Source of the DNA: an uncultured Acidimicrobiales bacterium
Lineage (GTDB): Bacteria; Actinomycetota; Geothermincolia; Fen-727; Anoxymicrobiaceae
Direction: 5' to 3'
Assembly: GCA_964512645.1 (NCBI GenBank)
Contig: CAZEJS010000001.1
Location: 825-64,824, forward strand
Length of the DNA stretch: 64,000 nt
Of this stretch, positions 1 through 62,621 are shown piece by piece. Numbering within the stretch: position 1 is the stretch's first letter; each line of letters opens with the position of its first letter. The position numbers and the translations under genes were made by a program. The notes beneath the pieces were generated by a model. That model did no database searches. It had not been told where the DNA came from and worked only from the letters and a program-made list of their open reading frames with translations.

Positions 1-1957
1 GGTCCGGCCCGATGGCTTCCTCTCGCGGTGAAGAAGTCGTCGAGTGCAGAAACCCTTCGACGCCGTCGAGGAATATACGCTGGTTGTTGTGCTCGTCCAC
101 CGTGGCGATCACGACGTGGTCGGTGCCGGCCGCCCAGTTCGAGGCGTTGCACTCGATCGCCGTCCAGACCGCTGAGCCGTGAGACCAGGTTCCGATGGCG
201 ACCAGCCCGTAGGCGGTCTTGAGGAGTTCCCACCCGTAAGTGGACGCGACCCCGTCCCGGTTCATGAGCATCAGGTGGGGCATGCCGTCGTCATAAGGCG
301 CGGAGGAGTTGACGACGCAGACGGCGGTGAACGGCATGCCGGGGGTCACCCCCAGGGACGCGCAGGGCCAGGAGCAGGAACCGTATGCGCCCGGGCCTAT
401 CACCGGCGCAACGGCGCCCTTCAGATGGGCGGTCCGCGGAGTGCCGGAAAGGGTCGCGGGGATGTCGTGCGCCAGGTCCCTGACCGAGGGTGTGCCGTCC
501 ATGTAGAGGACGTCGGGCGCCGTTCCGGGGACGGGATCAACACCGCCAGCGAGCGCGAACCCCGCAGCGTCGTGCCCGCCGGTCCAGGCGTTGTAGTCGA
601 AGTACATGGAGCGTTCGACGACGATCGGCCTGTCGGAGGACACCAGCGCGGAGACGTCCTGGCCCTCCCCGACGTCGCTGTTGACGCTCACGGTCAGCCT
701 GGAGTTGGCGCTCACCGTCTTCTGCCTGGCGATCACCCGGGCGCCCGCCGTGAGGTAGCTGACCGTGACCCGGGCTTCTGTGTCCCCGGGGTTCTGCAGG
801 CAGAGCCATTCCTCGAAGTCCACCCTGGTGGTCCCTTCCGCGAGAAACCAGGCGGTCGCGGCGGAGCTTATGCCCGGCACGCTGTGCCCCCCGGTCCAGG
901 CGTTGTGGTAGTCGAAGTACACGGGGCGCTCGGCAATGAAGCCCCGCGGCGACTCGAGGTGGATGCCGCAGTCCCTGTCCGGCCCCACCTCCCGGTTCAC
1001 CGATATCGTGACGCGCTCCCTGGCGGGGACGGAATATTTCCTGGAAACGGGGCCGCCCTGGCCGACCGCCGTCTGGTACGTGGCGGTCACCACCAGGGGA
1101 ACGGCGCCCGGGTTCTGCAGACAGAGCCACTGCTCGAAAGCGCCGTCCACGGGGTTCCTCCTGGTGGTGCCCTCTGCGAAGTACCACTCTCGGCCCGGGG
1201 AGTTTGCCCCCAGCACGTCGTGGCCGCCGGTCCAGTTGTTCCCCGCGAGACCCCGGTAATCGAAATACATGGGACGCTCGGCCACCACCCCACGGGTGCT
1301 CTCGAGGAAAAGGCTCGCGTGTTTCCCGGCCCCGATCTGGTCCCTGGTCTTGAACGTGGCCCGGGAACGTGGCCCCACTTTCCCCGGCACGTTCTTCTCT
1401 CCTTCACCTTCCACCATGTAGTGGAACACCAGGCCGGCCTCCTCGGGGCCGGGGTTGAGAACGGTGACGTACTGGTCGAACTCGGGCAGGGTATTGCCCT
1501 CGGCGAAGTACCAGCGGGTGTCGGGCGCGACCGCTCCCGGGGCGCAGGAGCCGCCGGTCCATGCCCCGTTGTAGTTGAAGTAGATGGGCCTTTCCGCGAC
1601 CAGGCCCGGGGTGCCGGACCGGATCCTTACGGACACGTCCTTCCCCGGCCCCACCTCGCCGTTCACGTCCACGGTGCAACGTGAGTTCGCGGGCACGGGG
1701 TAACTCGCCTCCCTGGTGCCGCCGTCGGTGAACATGTAGGTGGCCCGGGCGACGGTGTCCCGGCTGCCGGGGTTGCCCAGGCACAGGTACTCCTGGAAGC
1801 CGGCGCGAGTGGTGCCTTCGGCGAAATAGAACGTAGCCGGCGGCGTCGAACCCGCGCCTGCCGCCTGAAGCGACAACAGCGGGATGCAGCCGGCTGCGAA
1901 CATGACGATGACAACCGGCATTGTCCCGTATCTCTTGATCTTTCTTGCGCCGTCCAT
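1..1957 (-). CDS. Secreted tandem-repeat protein, 3' end truncated by window edge. N-terminal signal peptide, four ~110-aa repeats, then a distinct C-terminal domain continuing past position 1
   Basis: ATG at 1957 (MDGARKIKRYGTMPVVIVMFAAGCIPLLSLQAAGA...) opens a frame with no stop down to position 1, so it is absent from the ORF track. My own translation shows the repeated unit (W)YFAEGTT..F.EWLCLQNPG...ERP.YFDY.AWTGG four times. The sense-frame signal peptide and domain order contrast with the junk-like 501-aa plus-strand ORF 179..1684. Confidence 0.75.
   Translation of the reverse strand, partial: MDGARKIKRYGTMPVVIVMFAAGCIPLLSLQAAGAGSTPPATFYFAEGTTRAGFQEYLCLGNPGSRDTVARATYMFTDGGTREASYPVPANSRCTVDVNGEVGPGKDVSVRIRSGTPGLVAERPIYFNYNGAWTGGSCAPGAVAPDTRWYFAEGNTLPEFDQYVTVLNPGPEEAGLVFHYMVEGEGEKNVPGKVGPRSRATFKTRDQIGAGKHASLFLESTRGVVAERPMYFDYRGLAGNNWTGGHDVLGANSPGREWYFAEGTTRRNPVDGAFEQWLCLQNPGAVPLVVTATYQTAVGQGGPVSRKYSVPARERVTISVNREVGPDRDCGIHLESPRGFIAERPVYFDYHNAWTGGHSVPGISSAATAWFLAEGTTRVDFEEWLCLQNPGDTEARVTVSYLTAGARVIARQKTVSANSRLTVSVNSDVGEGQDVSALVSSDRPIVVERSMYFDYNAWTGGHDAAGFALAGGVDPVPGTAPDVLYMDGTPSVRDLAHDIPATLSGTPRTAHLKGAVAPVIGPGAYGSCSWPCASLGVTPGMPFTAVCVVNSSAPYDDGMPHLMLMNRDGVASTYGWELLKTAYGLVAIGTWSHGSAVWTAIECNASNWAAGTDHVVIATVDEHNNQRIFLDGVEGFLHSTTSSPREEAIGPD
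560..1885 (-). repeat. Four tandem ~330-bp coding repeats inside the secreted repeat-protein gene
   Basis: Nucleotide-level recurrence of ccggtccaggcgttgtagtcgaagtacatgg-like blocks near 580-640, 890-960, 1225-1305 and 1550-1620. They translate to the YFDY..WTGG / YFAEGTT motif in each unit. Confidence 0.7.
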
Positions 1958-2520
1958 GTCTCACCAGCCGCTTCCGTGCCTGCGGTGCGCGCTCGAACGG
2001 TCCTCCACGCCGGGACCTGCTATGACAAGCATACAAGACCCTGCTGCCGGGGTGACCCTCGCTCTCACGTGTTTTCCAGAAGCCAGGTCCGCGGGCCGTT
2101 TGCCAGTGTGGCGCCCTCCTGGTTGACTTCTGTCGTGTCCTGACAACCGGAGGGCAAGCCGGGACGAGGAGATTGACATGGCATCCCTTGACCAGGGGAT
2201 ATATCGCCGAATGTTGTCTTCGGGGCTTTCCTCCCGATCCGCGTCAGGTGCATATGCTCCACAGGAGCCTGGTCTTCCCGCCTTCGACCAAAGTCAAATG
2301 TTCTGACTTTCGATGCTGCGCCCTGCGGCTCGATCCGTGAGGCGCATGCGTGAAACAGCGCGGAACAATGCCCGAGCTCGTCTCTTTGCCCCGAAGCACC
2401 TCGGAGGGCGGCGCGCGGCGCATCACAATGTCGTCCTTCTCCGTTATCATTGAGTGTCACCGAGCGACGGGGGCCGGTGCGAGAGAACCGCGCCGACCAA
2501 CGACCGAACACCCCTGGGAG

Positions 2521-34368: not shown

Positions 34369-34407
34369 GAGGCCCGCTGACCACCGTTGCCCTACGGGAG
34401 GTTCGAG

Positions 34408-37185
34408 TTGGAAGAGATCACGGTCCGGATCGACGGGACTGAGGTGGTCGGGCCGAAAGGCTCGACGATACTGGACATGGCGAAAGCCGGCGGGATTGAC
34501 ATACCGACGCTGTGCTACGACCCGAGGCTGTCGCCTTACGGGGCCTGCAGGCTCTGCCTGGTGGAGGTCGAGGGCGCGCGGGGCCTGCTGCCGGCGTGCT
34601 ACGCCGAGGCTACCGACGGCATGGTCGTCCGGACCGCCACCGAGCAGCTAGAGCGCATCAGGAAGACCCTGGTCGAGCTCCTGGTTTCGGACCACCCCAT
34701 GGAGTGCCAGGGTTGCACGAAATCGGGACGCTGCGAACTGCAGAGACTGGCCGACCGGTACGGGGTCACCGACGACTCCGCCTTCGAGGGAGAGGTGCAC
34801 GAGTACGATCTCCTGCAGGAGAACCCTTTCATCATCCGGGACTACAACAAGTGCGTCATGTGCGGCCGCTGCATCCGGATATGCCGCGAAGTCCAGGGGG
34901 TCGGGGTTTACGACTTCGTCAACCGGGGATTCAAGGCGGTTCCCGGCACCCCCTACTCCAACCCGATGACCGAGACTCCGTGCGAGTTCTGCGGGCAGTG
35001 CATCTCGACCTGCCCGACAGGCGCGCTCAAGGCGCGCCCGTACGAGGCCGAGGGGCGCGTGGCCGCGCGGGACCTGCTGCGCAACGCCTGCGCCTTCTTC
35101 AAGATGAGCGAGGACGAGATGATGGAGGCGCTGGGCCTCGAAGGCTGGAAGGTCCGTACGACCTGCGCCTACTGCGGCTGCGGCTGCCAGCTCGACCTCC
35201 ACGTCATCGACAACAAGGTCGTCGAGGTGACCTCCCCCCTGATGGTGGGTCCCGGGCAGGGCAACCTCTGCGTCAAGGGACGGTTCGGCTACGACTTCAT
35301 CGACAGCGACGACAGGCTGACCAGGCCGCTGATCCGCAAGGAGGGGCGTTTCGTCGAGGCCGGATGGGACGAGGCCCTCGACCTTATCGCCGCCAGGCTG
35401 GGGGAGGTGAAGGCGAAGAGCGGCCCCGACTCCATCGGCATCCTGTCCTCGGCGAGGGCCACCAACGAGGACAACTACGTGGTGCAGAAGTTCGCCCGGG
35501 CCTGCGTCGGCACCAACAACGTCGACCACTGCGCACGTTTGTGACACGCTCCAACCGTCGCCGGTCTGGCGAAAACGTTCGGAAGCGGAGCGATGACCAA
35601 CACCATCGATGACCTCGAGGAAGCCGGGGCGATACTGGTCATCGGGTCCAACACCACCGAGGCCCACCCCATCATAGGCCTGCGGATCAAGAAAGCGGTA
35701 ATGCAGAACGACTGCAAGCTGATCGTCGCCGAGCCGAGGCGCATCAGGCTCTCGCACTACGCCGACAGGGTCCTGCAGCACAGACCCGGCACCGACGTCG
35801 CCCTGCTCAACGGGTTCATGAACGTCATCATAGAGGAAGGCCTTTACGACGAGGCGTTCGTGGCGGAAAGGTGCGAAGGTTTCGAGGAGCTCAAGGAGCT
35901 CGTGAAGGAGTACCCCCCCGAAAAGGTGGCGGAGATCTGCGAGGTGGAGGCGGAAGAGATACGCCAGGCCGCGCGGACCTTTGCCGCCGCCGACAGCGCC
36001 GCCATCCTGTACGCCATGGGCATCACCCAGCACACCACCGGCACCGACAACGTCGTTACCGTGGCCAACCTGTCGATGCTCACCGGCAACATCGGCAAGC
36101 GCGGCGCGGGCGTCAACCCATTGAGGGGACAGAACAACGTCCAGGGCGCCTGCGACATGGGGGCGCTTCCCAACGTGTTCACCGGCTACCGCCCTGTGAG
36201 CGACGAGGAGACGCGCCGGAAGTTCGAGGAGGCCTGGGGCGTCGAACTGCCCTCCGAACCGGGGATGACCGCCACCGCGATGATGGAGGCCGCCGCGGAG
36301 GGCGGAATCAAGGCGATGTATATCGTCGGTGAGAACCCCATGGTCAGCGACCCCAACCTCCGCCACGCCGAGAGCGCCCTGGGGAACCTCGATTTCCTGG
36401 TGGTCCAGGACATATTCATGACCGAGACCGCGGCCCTTGCCGACGTGGTGCTGCCGTCGGCCTCCTTCGCGGAGAAGGAGGGCACCTTCAGCGCCACCGA
36501 CCGGCGCGTGCAGAGGGTGCGCAAGGCGGTGGAGCCGCCCGGCGAAGCCCGGGCCGACTTCGAGATAGTCGCGGACCTCTCGAGGAGAATGGGTTACGAC
36601 ATGGGCACTCCGGAGCCCGCGGAGATCATGGAAGAGGCGGCGTCTCTTACGCCGCATTACGGCGGCATCAGCCACGCCCGGCTCGATTCCCTGCCGGAGA
36701 ACGAGGCGCTGCACTGGCCTTGTCCGGACCCCGGGCACCCTGGGACACCCATACTGCACACCGCGCAGTTCACCCGCGGCAAGGGCTGGTTCTGCCCGGT
36801 GCTCTACCGGGCGCCGGCGGAGCTGCCGGACGCGGAGTACCCGCTGGTCCTCACCACCGGGCGCGTCCTCTGGCAGTACCATACCGGTACGATGACCCGC
36901 CGAGTCGACGGCATCAACGAACTCGACCCCCACGGGAAGGCCTGGATCAACCCCGAGGACGCCGAGGAGGCCGGCATCGAGATCGGCGGGGACGTGCGCA
37001 TAGCCACCCGCAGGGGAGAGATCGAGATGGAGGCGCTGGTCACCAGGCGCATACCGAAGGGAATGATCTTCGTTCCGTTCCATTACTCCGAGGCGGCCGC
37101 CAACGTCCTCACCAACGACGCCCTCGACCCGGTAAGCCGGGTCCCGGAATTCAAGGTCAGCGCCGCCAGGATCAGCGCGAAATGA
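34408..37185 (+). CDS. fdhA: Formate dehydrogenase catalytic subunit, probably a selenoprotein (in-frame UGA at 35542..35544 read as Sec). N-terminal [2Fe-2S]/[4Fe-4S] NuoG-like domain fused to a Mo/W-bis-PGD domain
   Basis: Track ORFs 34387..35544 and 35593..37185 are in the same frame. The sequence across the TGA reads [36 protein letters not shown]..., which aligns with the E. coli FdhF active-site region (VDNCARV-U-HGPSVAGL...). The rest matches FdhF along its length. Probable TTG start at 34408 is 6 nt after GGGAGG. Confidence 0.85.
35548..35580 (+). ncRNA. SECIS-like mRNA hairpin directing Sec insertion at the fdhA UGA
   Basis: CGCC-GGUCU-GGCG hairpin about 15-30 nt 3' of the UGA, with the GGUCU apical loop as in the E. 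coli fdhF SECIS. Sequence match only. Confidence 0.6.
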
Positions 37186-58997: not shown

Positions 58998-59405
58998 TCA
59001 GAACTTCACCTTGATGAGCTGCAGGGGGCAGGCGTCCACGCAGAAACCGCACAGGATGCAGCGGTCCCTGTCGAGCACCAGTTCCCAGTCCGGCGCCCCG
59101 ACCTTGAGCGCCCGGGGCTGGCAGACGGCGGTGCAGGCGCCGCACGAGATACAGAGCTTGTCGTCGAGCTCGATGTCCCTTATGGCATCCTCGACCTGGA
59201 CCCCCAGCTCCTGGAGGTGCCGCACCCCCGCCTTGATGCGCGCCGCCGGCCCCTCCAGCTCGACCAGCATGCGCCCTATCTCGCCCTCGCTTATCTCCGC
59301 GCGCAGGATGTTGGTGATCACGTCGTAGTCCCTGACCATCATCGCCACCACCGGCCTCTCCACGACCTCGGGAGGGAATGTCAGCACGAGCCTCTTCTTC
59401 GCCAT
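58998..59405 (-). CDS. NIL-domain / 2x[4Fe-4S] ferredoxin protein (homocysteine-biosynthesis partner, MA1822-like)
   Basis: 135 aa. N-terminal NIL-like region, then CISCGACTAVCQP and CILCGFCVDACP. Start abuts the stop of the DUF39 gene. Confidence 0.75.
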   Translation of the reverse strand: MAKKRLVLTFPPEVVERPVVAMMVRDYDVITNILRAEISEGEIGRMLVELEGPAARIKAGVRHLQELGVQVEDAIRDIELDDKLCISCGACTAVCQPRALKVGAPDWELVLDRDRCILCGFCVDACPLQLIKVKF

Positions 59406-60572
59406 CTACTCCCCCTCCCCGGTCCGAATCTCCAGCGGGAGCGTAACCCCACCGGACGGGAGCGGCTCCACAGGCGCGGTCAGCAGGAACGCGCCTTCCC
59501 GGATCCAGGCCTTCAGGTTCGCCGCTATCTGCCGGGCCACCTTGTAGCTGGAGAGCGGCGCCGTGGGGACTTTCCTGTCCCCCAGCCGCACCGACCCGCT
59601 CCGGAGTTCCGCGTAACTGACCCGCCGCAGCGGCTCGCGAGCCCTCGTCGGCTGGCTGTAGTCGAAGACCGAGGTCTCGATTTCGGAATCGGCCACCCCG
59701 GTAAACGCCGCCATCTCTTCGTCGAGCACCGGTATGGGGATTCCCACCCCGACGTAAAGCGTCACGCCGTAGCGGTGAAACCTGGCACCTCTGATGAACC
59801 TGGAATCCATCTGCTTGAGGTCGCCGATGAGGGCGAGGCTCGCGGCGGGGCCAACCGGGGTGCCCCCCGGCGAACGCTCCACGCTTCCCTTGTGCTGGGT
59901 CCCCTGCCAGGCCACGTACCCCGCGGTTCCGCCGAGGAATATCCTGGTGCCGACACCGACGGCCCTGTACAGCGGGTCGTTGAGCAGAGGGCTCATCTGG
60001 CCCGCGCTGCAGTAGGTGACGCTGCCGAAGTTCGGCAGCAGGACTCCCATGTAAGTGTAGATCGTCCGCTGTGAGCCGTTGGTAGCGGAGGCGTAGTTCT
60101 GGTAGGCGTTGCGCGGATTGAACAGGTAAGCCTGGTTCACGGTATCTTTGCTCACCAGGGTCTCTATCTCCTTGCGGGGATAGCAATCCGTGCCGTAGGC
60201 AGAGGCCCGCAGCCTTATGCTCTTTCCCTCCACCAGGTCCTGTATCACGTGCGCGCCGCCGTAGGCGATCCCCTCGGTCTCGGAGCTGGCGGTGGCCCCT
60301 ACGTACGCGTCGACGGCGGCGAGGTCGGCGCAGACGGGGACGTCGTTCAGCCAGACCCTCGACATCTTGATCGGGGGCTCGCTGTGGCCGAAGTTGATGA
60401 ACGCCCCCGAGGAACACATGGGCCCGAACGTCCCGGTAGTCACGACGTCCACCCGGCGCGCGGCCTTCCGTGCGCCCTCGGACTTCACGATCTCCGTCAT
60501 CTCGTCGGCGGTGACGACGACGGCCTCGCCTTTCCTGATCCTCTCGTTTATCTCCTCGTACGTCTTGACCAC
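59406..60572 (-). CDS. DUF39 / COG1900 family protein (sulfide-dependent homocysteine biosynthesis, MA1821-like)
   Basis: ORF 59406..60773. Probable GTG start at 60572, 6 nt after the strong SD GGAGGGAGGTGGG, gives (M)VKTYEEINERIRKGEAVVVTADEM, the canonical COG1900 N-terminus. The upstream 60 codons are junk-like. Confidence 0.75.
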   Translation of the reverse strand: MVKTYEEINERIRKGEAVVVTADEMTEIVKSEGARKAARRVDVVTTGTFGPMCSSGAFINFGHSEPPIKMSRVWLNDVPVCADLAAVDAYVGATASSETEGIAYGGAHVIQDLVEGKSIRLRASAYGTDCYPRKEIETLVSKDTVNQAYLFNPRNAYQNYASATNGSQRTIYTYMGVLLPNFGSVTYCSAGQMSPLLNDPLYRAVGVGTRIFLGGTAGYVAWQGTQHKGSVERSPGGTPVGPAASLALIGDLKQMDSRFIRGARFHRYGVTLYVGVGIPIPVLDEEMAAFTGVADSEIETSVFDYSQPTRAREPLRRVSYAELRSGSVRLGDRKVPTAPLSSYKVARQIAANLKAWIREGAFLLTAPVEPLPSGGVTLPLEIRTGEGE

Positions 60573-60669
60573 GAGCCCACCTCCCTCCGGCGGTGTTGAT
60601 GTGTCCATTCTAGCCGAACCGGCCCGGCCGCCGGAGGCTCCCGGGTACGACTCGGCGGAGGGCCCGCAT

Positions 60670-60724
60670 AAAAAAGGCCTTCCGTCCTCATGGGGACGAA
60701 AGGCACGCTTCCGTGGTACCACCC
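60670..60724 (-). promoter_or_regulatory. Leader element upstream of the DUF39 gene: T-box-like sequence (GGGUGGUACCACGG) immediately followed by an intrinsic terminator
   Basis: Minus strand: GAAGUGGGGUGGUACCACGGAAGCGUG-CCUUUCGUCC-CCAUGA-GGACGGAAGG-CC-UUUUUU. The stem is 10 bp with one G-U, U6 tract, about 100 nt before the GTG start. 12/13 match to the T-box consensus GGGUGGNACCGCG. A candidate TTGACA-17-TAGGTT promoter lies at 60997..61025. Confidence 0.4.
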
Positions 60725-61082
60725 CACTTCGCCCGCGCCTCGCGGCGCCGGGCCTCACCGGGTACGCCCCCACGTGCAGGGAATATACCCCGGCCCTGTT
60801 ACGGGGGCGTCCGCCCGGTTCTACTCGCCCGGCGGCGCCGGGTTTTCTTCCGGGAGCTCGGGGGCCATGTTCGAGGAGCGCCCGCGGCGCCGGCTCCCAC
60901 CGTCCCGGCTCGCTTCGGCCCGGCTTCCACCTCTACTCTTCCCCTTCAAAGCCTTTCACTGGTGTTCAGTTGTAAAGCGTCACTGCGTTCACCATGAACC
61001 TACCCATGCCCGGTGGATCTGTCAAGGAAAGCCCCGACAGCGCACGGAGGTAGGCGGGCCCGGCGGTCGAATTCCAGAACAG

Positions 61083-62621
61083 ATGAACGTCGAAAAAACA
61101 CCCGGCCCGATGGCGACAAGCGCGGTACTGGCATGCCTAGGGGTGGCTTCGGGTCTCCTCTACTGGACGCTGATCTCGATATCTCTGGACCCCGCGCTGG
61201 GCATTGTCCACGGAATGCGGGACGCGACCTGCACTGGCCCGCTCACCTGGCCGGCCAGCTTTCTCCGCGTCACCGGCACCGGGCCGGAGATGGCCCAGGC
61301 TGCCTATATCATTCTGATCGTCCTGCTGTCCGGCCTCTGGTACGCCGGCATCCACATCGTGAAGCGCGAGCGAGGCCACGCGGCCACGGCGGTGATCGCC
61401 TGCGGCTTCGCGGTCTTCGCTACGCTGCTGGTGCTGGCCCCGGTCTTCCAGTCGTCCGACATCTTCAACTACGTGTTCGGAGGCCGGGCGATGTCGGTCT
61501 ACCGCTCCAACCCCTATACGCTCCTCCCGTCCATGCGACCGCACGACCCGTTCTACGGGTTGATCGCCTGGAAAGACGCCGCAAGCGTCTACGGCCCTAT
61601 TTTCAGTTACCTCTCCTGCCTGCTCACCAGGATCGCCGGGAACAGCGTCACCGCCAACGTCATCTGTTTCAAGGTTATGGCGGCGCTGTCCTACGCGGCG
61701 TGTCTGCCCCTGGTCTACCACCTGGCGCGCAGGGTCTCTCCCGGACGTGAGAACCAGGCGCTGATGCTCGGCGCCTGGTGCCCGCTCCTGCTGCTGCACA
61801 TCCCCGGGGGAGCGCACAACGACATGTTGGCAGTCACGCTGGTCCTCGGGGGCTACCTGCTGTACCGGAAAGGCCACCTGCTGTGGGGCCTGGCGCTGGT
61901 GGCGCTGGCGCTGGACGTGAAGCTGACCGCGGGGCTCGCCCTGGTGCCGCTTCTCGTCCTGTACATCAGGGACAGGTGCGGCGTCCCGCTGAATAGACTG
62001 GCGCTCGGAAGCCTCACCTGCGCCGCGGCCGTCGCCGTCCCGTACGCGGGCCTGTGGCGGGGGAGCCGCACCTTCGAGAGCACCGGGAAGGTGGCTTCGC
62101 TGTACTCCGCCTCGTCTGTTCCCGACCTCTTCAGGCAGCCCCTGGAACGCCTGCTCACCGCGAAAGGCGTCTCCCCGGCGACGGCCGACACCATCGCGAG
62201 GGGCTCGATTCGCCTGGTCTTCCTCGTGGTCTTTCTCGTCGGAGCGTTCGTCCTGCTCCGCCGGGTCACCGACTTCGGCTCCATGGCCCGCGCCGCCGCC
62301 GCGCTGGCCCTGCTGTGGCTCCTCACATCGACTTACGTCCTTCCGTGGTACGCGACCCTCGGGGTAATGCTGGTGTCCTTCTCCGCCTGGAACCTCACCA
62401 CCGTCATGACGCTCGGCGCGGCGACGGTACTGCTGCTGTACAGGTTGCCGCTCAGCGGCGAACCCGGCGGTGGCGCGACACTCTATATCGCGCTCCCGCT
62501 CCTGCTGATTGCCGCGGGCTGGGCCCTGCTGGGCGCATTGACGCGCGCGACGCGCGCGCGAAGCGCCTTCAACGGTACCGATGGCCGGAGAATCGCCCCC
62601 TCCGCGCCGGGTGGCGGGTGA
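61083..62621 (+). CDS. Polytopic membrane glycosyltransferase-like protein (GT87 / DUF2029 mannosyltransferase-like)
   Basis: Tail of ORF 60690..62621, starting at ATG 61083 or 61110 (MATSAVLACLG...). About 12 TM helices, conserved-looking loop motifs (DIFNYVFGGRA, HNDMLAV). The preceding 130 codons of the ORF overlap the divergent leader and look non-coding. Confidence 0.6.
   Translation: MNVEKTPGPMATSAVLACLGVASGLLYWTLISISLDPALGIVHGMRDATCTGPLTWPASFLRVTGTGPEMAQAAYIILIVLLSGLWYAGIHIVKRERGHAATAVIACGFAVFATLLVLAPVFQSSDIFNYVFGGRAMSVYRSNPYTLLPSMRPHDPFYGLIAWKDAASVYGPIFSYLSCLLTRIAGNSVTANVICFKVMAALSYAACLPLVYHLARRVSPGRENQALMLGAWCPLLLLHIPGGAHNDMLAVTLVLGGYLLYRKGHLLWGLALVALALDVKLTAGLALVPLLVLYIRDRCGVPLNRLALGSLTCAAAVAVPYAGLWRGSRTFESTGKVASLYSASSVPDLFRQPLERLLTAKGVSPATADTIARGSIRLVFLVVFLVGAFVLLRRVTDFGSMARAAAALALLWLLTSTYVLPWYATLGVMLVSFSAWNLTTVMTLGAATVLLLYRLPLSGEPGGGATLYIALPLLLIAAGWALLGALTRATRARSAFNGTDGRRIAPSAPGGG

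Follow-up and report, generated by a model that had tools for sequence, protein, structure and literature searches.

A probable class-I T-box riboswitch for tRNA-Met upstream of the DUF39/NIL-ferredoxin genes of a deep-branching actinobacterium

T-box leaders have been described from Firmicutes, Actinobacteria, Chloroflexi, Deinococcus-Thermus and Geobacter (PMC3766115). Those specific for methionine are well studied in Staphylococcus and the Lactobacillales (PMC3771891, PMC7913692, PMC3766115); among the Actinobacteria, the his operon of Corynebacterium glutamicum is under a transcriptional T-box (PMC9413887), and translation is the target of the ileS leaders in Mycobacterium and Nocardia (PMC7778990, PMC11297988). 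Here we describe a leader on the minus strand of a 64-kb stretch of contig CAZEJS010000001.1, from an uncultured actinobacterium (the window: the whole 64,000 nucleotides analysed), which precedes a gene for a DUF39 protein and an adjoining gene for a NIL-domain/ferredoxin protein. Proteins of these two kinds are genetically required for the synthesis of homocysteine, hence of methionine, in Desulfovibrio and Methanosarcina (PMC5764234). Judged from the sequence and its relatives, the leader is very probably a genuine class-I T-box riboswitch for tRNA-Met that controls the DUF39/NIL-ferredoxin genes by transcription attenuation. An earlier note, made from the letters of the window, had pointed to such a T-box and called it unusual outside Firmicutes. 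That last remark was overstated, as T-boxes are documented in several other phyla (PMC3766115, PMC9413887). T-boxes, transcriptional ones included, are already known in Actinobacteria, and what the present one adds is an under-sampled lineage and an unusual target gene.

Read directly, the minus strand from 61025 to 60573 carries a promoter, a T-box string and a hairpin followed by six T, and the GTG start codon stands at 60572. A default Rfam scan of the whole window at gathering thresholds gave no matches, and the T-box surfaced only in E-value mode. In that mode the covariance model RF00230 aligns over its full length (Table 1), with E = 4e-12 on a 701-nucleotide (nt) region and 3.6e-10 on the whole window, and the complete class-I (transcription-terminating) leader, including its terminator, occupies 60958..60670 (minus strand, as for all leader coordinates below). 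This is the sole T-box match in the window at E ≤ 0.01. From the kink-turn (K-turn) to the T-box sequence with its 7-nt bulge, the canonical elements are all placed by the alignment, and the structure described here was drawn from this alignment and from covariation, not from minimum free energy (MFE) folding.

A metagenome scan with the DUF39 protein, which gave 73 loci, was the source of the close relatives; a profile scan of genome contigs with a DUF39 alignment gave, among the matches listed, only relatives of at most 64% identity (Bacillota, archaea and others). Most close relatives have the T-box core motif 85-190 nt ahead of DUF39, and at least four distant loci with 55-57% protein identity, labelled Coriobacteriia, Actinobacteria or Eubacteriales, have it too; these four came from the genome-contig scan, which also brought up the SAM-I loci described below. 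An nhmmer profile of 17 leaders from the clade matches 27 fetched loci together with a single copy in the window. When the canonical T-box structure, pseudoknot included, was drawn on an alignment of 17 leaders (A2), 93.7% of the cells held standard pairs, against 39-52% when the 3' partners were slid by 1-3 columns. Compensatory changes occur in 24 of the 57 pairs (76 cells), and none of 500 shuffles reaches the observed values on four of five measures; on the remaining one, further pair types, a single shuffle does. RNAalifold, run unguided, recovers Stem I, the IIB pairs, Stem III and the terminator.

The 3' end of the leader holds two structures that are mutually exclusive, a single strand, CUUUCGUCCCC, serving both as the antiterminator 3' strand and as the terminator 5' arm. 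The T-box sequence GGGUGGUACCACGG (60724..60711), within the longer T-box string GGGGUGGUACCACGG (60725..60711), agrees with the consensus GGGUGGNACCGCG in 12 of 13 positions and stands directly 5' of the terminator, sharing the terminator 5' arm. The earlier note had picked out both this match and a canonical terminator about 100 nt before the start, and both are there: the stem spans 60704..60677 and its T6 run ends 98 nt before the GTG. In the antiterminator (GGGGUGGUACCACG) the bulge UGGUACC lies at 60721..60715, with UGGU at 60721..60718. Folded alone, the terminator hairpin has an energy of -19.2 kcal/mol (z = -5.25 against shuffles) and the antiterminator region one of -14.2 kcal/mol; with the terminator the stabler of the two, the arrangement is the classical one, in which uncharged tRNA is needed to stabilise the antiterminator. 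The antiterminator helices (11 and 12) have 100% and 94% pairing, 4 of their pairs showing compensatory change, and the terminator helix, drawn in place of the antiterminator, is 98.4% paired, also with compensatory change in 4 pairs. Since both covary, both alternatives are under selection, as is characteristic of a switch.

This covariation also bears on whether the leader is something other than a working T-box, namely a metabolite riboswitch of the S-adenosylmethionine (SAM) or S-adenosylhomocysteine (SAH) type, the terminator of an upstream small RNA, or a decaying relic. SAM-I riboswitches do lie upstream of DUF39 in Bacillota and Bacteroidota (loci L002, L003, L010, L013 and L016; 51-93 bits), in tandem in three of these five loci (L010, L013 and L016), and T-box remnants exist in the relatives L097 and L107. 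However, no SAM or SAH aptamer family matches 60450..61150 at E ≤ 10, the T-box being the only family reported there, so that the SAM-type riboswitch offered as an alternative in the earlier note is excluded. The terminator 5' arm is common to a canonical antiterminator, and the 24 compensatory pairs amount to structural selection on the whole leader, unexpected in a relic. Each of these readings is therefore very improbable.

Stem I is complete. Its K-turn is formed by UUUGAA (60950..60945) opposite CGA (60860..60858), the AG bulge lies at 60915..60910 and the distal loop at 60904..60894. The AG bulge AAGCGAG, which is AGAGAG in distant relatives, aligns to the AGAGA motif of the model, and the distal loop GACGGUGGGAG aligns to its GGUG..A motif; bulge and loop are nearly invariant across the 17 leaders. 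Helices 1-5 of Stem I are 84-100% paired, with compensatory changes in 9 of 20 pairs, and helices 1-3 covary. Two sequences had earlier been taken for Stem I elements: GAGUAGAGG does hold the specifier-loop AGUA, whereas AGUGAAAGG is not part of Stem I, the K-turn being the UUUGAA that follows it. Downstream of Stem I, the base of Stem II (helix 6) is 91% paired, and in 6 sequences a C-G pair there is replaced by U-A. In the pseudoknot (helices 7 and 8) IIA is invariant and IIB covaries (GCCC/GGGC, GUCC/GGAC, GCUC/GAGC); the extra hairpin that follows it (helix 9) is 92.5% paired, with compensatory change in 2 pairs, and Stem III (helix 10) has compensatory change in 6 of its 9 pairs.

The specifier-loop GAGUA and GAA are invariant, and the specifier AUG is so in all 17 aligned leaders. 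In glyQS-type leaders the codon follows directly after GAA. That spacing would suit GAA-CAU in the window and give CAU (His), in the register GAA-CAU-G, as the specifier. However, relative L117 has GAA-AUG-G, by a 1-nt deletion, and Candidatus Solincola (L053) has GAAG-AUG-G; AUG is thus retained in three contexts, these two and the GAAC-AUG-G of the window, and it is AUG, not CAU, that is the conserved triplet. In the RF00230 alignment, moreover, the codon is read as the three nucleotides just 5' of the conserved purine that leads into the helix, which gives AUG-G, and the regulated genes make homocysteine, a methionine precursor (PMC5764234). A histidine specifier is extremely improbable. 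The T-box with a methionine specifier that the earlier note had proposed is borne out by the full-model match, by the AUG at the canonical place (60868..60866), by the exclusive antiterminator and terminator and by the covariation. The function of the genes downstream fits as well, AUG standing ahead of HcyBio/DUF39 and NIL-ferredoxin, which belong to the homocysteine-forming step (PMC5764234).

Table 1 Features of the leader and of the genes downstream of it, in window coordinates.
Feature	Coordinates	Strand	Details
P1 -35 hexamer TTGACA	61020..61025	-	invariant in 14/14 homologous leaders (alignment A3)
P1 -10 hexamer TAGGTT	60997..61002	-	17 nt after -35; G-N-TAGG-N-T invariant in 14/14 leaders
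T-box leader aligned to RF00230	60689..60958	-	model positions 1-219 of 219; 58.5 bits
Stem I (K-turn, specifier loop, AG bulge, distal loop)	60855..60953	-	covariance-model alignment
Specifier codon AUG (Met)	60866..60868	-	context GAAC-AUG-G, then CCCC helix strand; invariant in 17/17 aligned leaders
Stem II	60814..60854	-	base helix CCCGG/CCGGG; internal-loop motifs GAAGAAA and GAGUAGAA; variable apical hairpin
Stem IIA/B pseudoknot	60793..60813	-	includes F-box-like CCCGUAAC at 60805..60798
Lineage-specific extra hairpin GGGUA...UACCC	60760..60790	-	30-nt insertion relative to the Rfam model, between pseudoknot and Stem III
Stem III with GCGA tetraloop	60731..60753	-	covariance-model alignment, RNAalifold
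Antiterminator	60692..60725	-	helix A1 GGGG/CCCC, 7-nt bulge UGGUACC, helix A2 ACGGAAG/CUUUCGU
Intrinsic terminator	60670..60704	-	11-bp stem 60704..60677 (7 G-C), 6-nt loop, U6 at 60675..60670
-10-like box TAGAAT (candidate P2)	60607..60612	-	downstream of terminator; putative function
Shine-Dalgarno GGAGGUG	60578..60584	-	GGAGGTG or GGGGGTG in all relatives, 5-7 nt before start codon
Regulated gene 1: DUF39/HcyBio (L-aspartate-semialdehyde sulfurtransferase family)	59406..60572	-	Pfam PF01837, E = 2e-152; GTG start
Regulated gene 2: NIL-domain/4Fe-4S ferredoxin protein	58998..59405	-	Pfam NIL + Fer4; abuts DUF39 stop codon

By analogy with the established T-box mechanism, the leader would work as follows. 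Transcription from promoter P1 would yield a leader of about 420 nt, in which the AUG specifier in Stem I would meet the CAU anticodon and the distal platform would touch the tRNA elbow. On uncharged tRNA the free ACCA-3' would pair with the UGGU of the 7-nt bulge and stabilise the weaker antiterminator, and the polymerase would read through into the DUF39 and NIL/ferredoxin genes. With charged tRNA the stabler 11-bp terminator with its U6 run would form, and transcription would stop about 98 nt before the start codon.

Since ileS T-boxes work at the level of translation in Actinobacteria (PMC7778990, PMC11297988), the phylum of the present host, the leader might instead be a translational class-II T-box of the ileS kind that sequesters the ribosome-binding site. 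The window, and it alone, has an inverted repeat, CCUCCGGCGG/CCGCCGGAGG, that might partly mask the Shine-Dalgarno sequence. The leader speaks differently: its 3' alternative helix is a G+C-rich hairpin with U6 about 85 nt from the Shine-Dalgarno sequence, its Stem I is of full length, with AG bulge and distal loop, and the inverted repeat over the Shine-Dalgarno is not conserved in the relatives. Translational control of this kind is highly unlikely, and transcription attenuation remains our reading. The repeat itself is 10 bp long (about 60628..60637 and 60583..60592) and would cover part of the Shine-Dalgarno only in transcripts begun upstream at P1. We considered it as an anti-Shine-Dalgarno pairing and rejected it on its lack of conservation and on the fold energy of the region, which is no better than that of shuffles.

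Several observations weigh against a tRNA-Met T-box as the gate of these genes. The leader scores 58.5 bits, under the RF00230 gathering score of 93, and seven T-box-bearing relatives scanned in E-value mode score 63-88 bits, all below it. That score is an operational annotation cut-off and not a structural property, and the loss is attributable to G+C-rich insertions (bias 26.3), of which the 30-nt insert is the extra hairpin. The covariance-model check suggested in the earlier note succeeds by E-value (4e-12); held to the gathering score (58.5 against 93), it would wrongly have told against the T-box. The MFE fold of the whole leader is not T-box-like and its energy is no better than that of shuffles (z = -0.57), a result that is uninformative at 71% G+C. 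AUG is followed by a pyrimidine in one relative, and the bulge reads UGGC in two relatives and UGGA in one, with UGGU in all other leaders. Bacterial tRNA-Met carries the discriminator A73. There is no tRNA gene in the 64-kb window or in 35 related loci, so the complementarity to anticodon and discriminator is assumed from general knowledge; of the earlier pairing of a UGGU bulge with a discriminator-A tRNA-Met, the bulge, which does begin with UGGU, stands as observed and the A73 of tRNA-Met belongs to that assumption. Finally, with a conserved -10-like box standing past the terminator and ahead of the gene, the T-box may not be the sole gate.

The promoter ahead of the leader, P1, is the TTGACA-17-TAGGTT promoter proposed in the earlier note, and its two hexamers keep both sequence and spacing in all 14 of the homologous leaders compared while their flanks diverge. 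A generic sigma-70 scan misses it because TAGGTT, a hexamer of the TANNNT type, shares only 3 of its 6 positions with TATAAT. A TTGAAAA-like element, TTTACAA in the window, is conserved among the relatives further into the leader, after the P1 -10 and ahead of the K-turn, at 60965..60975 (minus strand).

The -10-like box downstream of the terminator is most economically read as a second promoter, P2, that may keep up a basal level of expression without the T-box. At this place 12 of the 14 leaders agree with TATAAT in 5/6 positions or better, against 1.18 expected from shuffles, and in relatives (L083-L105) the box takes the forms TACAAT, TATGAT or TATAGT between diverging flanks. In L092, L094, L095 and L102, close relatives that have no T-box, a box resembling it stands about as far ahead of the same ribosome-binding site. 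On these grounds the T-box could be real but accessory, with most DUF39 mRNA coming from P2 past the terminator and the riboswitch adding inducible transcription. Several points count the other way: no conserved -35 accompanies the box, it is missing from L103 and L117, and loci of the Coriobacteriia type have no room for a promoter, their T-run being directly followed by GGAGGUG. The leaders are kin, so that 12 of 14 does not mean 12 independent events, and a strong constitutive P2 would render a heavily conserved T-box pointless. An accessory role is a serious possibility that falls somewhat short of an even chance.

T-box and P1 might together form a self-contained inducible module placed upstream of an older P2, with constitutive basal transcription from P2, near the gene, and a tRNA-Met-gated boost from P1; class-I T-boxes would then be long established in deep Actinomycetota, and the presence, absence and remnants of the T-box would record gain or loss of the module. 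This fuller scenario is put forward tentatively, as possible though on balance doubtful. That the T-box is missing or a remnant in close relatives does indicate that the module has been gained or lost within the clade.

The relatives show further variations of the leader. What survives in L097 and L107 (about 1880..1960), behind a TTGACA promoter, is no more than a piece of the 3' half of the T-box, gcggaagcctttcgtccccgtggtggaaggctt, from which the T-run has gone; decay of the riboswitch seems to have taken place in some close relatives, these two among them. The leader of L053 (198..470, Candidatus Solincola tengchongensis), besides its GAAG-AUG-G specifier, has a divergent 3' domain with a UGGA bulge and a different terminator, and about 330 nt of unexplained sequence separate its T-box from DUF39. 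In L108 (95..610) 472 nt separate the T-box 3' domain from the DUF39 gene downstream; this stretch has AT-rich sequence and may contain small open reading frames (ORFs), and the contig is cut inside the leader. In L083 the terminator and the -10-like box are separated by an insertion (about 1870..1975), a perfect inverted repeat of some length, ggggtcaggtcgtgcggtgcgttttgcacc ... ggtgcaaaacgcaacgcacgacctgacccc, which looks like a small mobile or palindromic element.

The upstream neighbour, a gene of the MptA_B family that starts at 61083, is divergently transcribed, and the 510-nt intergenic region therefore belongs to the DUF39 leader. The window ORF codes for 388 amino acids, and DUF39 homologues of this length begin at the same start. 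An in-frame ATG at 60608..60606, inside the -10-like box, was considered as the DUF39 start and rejected: it runs into stops in relatives, and all homologues begin at the GTG behind the conserved GGAGGTG. The pair of DUF39 and NIL/ferredoxin genes is also present in locus L001. The closest named DUF39 homologues, at 79-81% identity, come from Candidatus Anoxymicrobium japonicum, Candidatus Anoxymicrobiaceae and metagenome-assembled genomes (MAGs) labelled 'Actinobacteria bacterium', a lineage within the Actinomycetota, class Candidatus Geothermincolia, consistent with the 65% G+C and the neighbouring Wood-Ljungdahl genes of the window.

Elsewhere in the window, at 35539..35597 (plus strand), there is a sub-threshold match to SECIS_3 (RF01989; 44.5 bits, with the gathering score at 63; E = 6e-7). 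It begins at an in-frame TGA (35542..35544) in the motif NVDHCARL*HAPTVAGL, within an ORF spanning about 34387..37185. From its sequence context the TGA resembles the selenocysteine position of a molybdopterin enzyme like formate dehydrogenase, and the ORFs 34387..35544 and 35593..37185 are probably one selenoprotein gene.

The literature searched holds no mention of a T-box together with DUF39 or COG1900, the lone apparent match being 'DUF3906'. The present leader would tie the recently discovered DUF39/NIL-ferredoxin route to homocysteine to the charging of tRNA-Met in uncultured Actinomycetota of the Wood-Ljungdahl type, and would give independent, regulation-based support to the view that these genes serve methionine synthesis in this lineage. 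With the same genes under SAM control in Bacillota, it makes a clear case of non-homologous regulator replacement on one gene family. The linkage of class-I leader and DUF39 spans two actinobacterial lineages at 55-57% protein identity; if it is indeed old, this would speak for full-length transcriptional T-boxes that are not confined to Firmicutes. How a T-box works is understood no differently for it. There is also a practical consequence for annotation: a clade whose T-boxes score 58-88 bits, under the Rfam cut-off of 93, will be missed by automated annotation of G+C-rich MAGs, which the addition of clade sequences to the RF00230 seed alignment would fix.

Compared with the SAM-I (S-box) riboswitches that precede DUF39 in Bacillota and Bacteroidota, the leader serves the same gene family and the same feedback logic in the methionine branch. 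SAM-I, however, senses SAM directly and not tRNA-Met charging, and it belongs to an unrelated RNA family; no SAM family matches the present leader. With the actinobacterial T-boxes of ileS and of the C. glutamicum his operon the leader shares the phylum and the principle of tRNA sensing, and the his leader also attenuates transcription (PMC9413887); specifier (here Met) and target genes differ from both. Stem I is truncated in the ileS leaders, which act by sequestering the ribosome-binding site (PMC7778990, PMC11297988), in contrast to the long Stem I, distal platform and terminator described here. In architecture and specifier the leader resembles the methionine T-boxes of Firmicutes, such as that of Staphylococcus aureus metICFE-mdh and those of the Met-T-box regulon of Lactobacillales, which are likewise class I with an AUG specifier (PMC3771891, PMC7913692, PMC3766115) and which combine, as is proposed for the present leader, pairing of UGGU with a discriminator-A tRNA and terminator/antiterminator control of methionine genes. 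The present leader differs from these in its host, a deep-branching actinobacterium among the relatives of Candidatus Anoxymicrobiaceae (Geothermincolia), and in its target, the DUF39/NIL-ferredoxin homocysteine route and not metI, metC, metF or metE. It differs also in its 71% G+C and its score below the Rfam cut-off, in a possible internal promoter past the terminator, and in the extra hairpin inserted between the IIA/B pseudoknot and Stem III.

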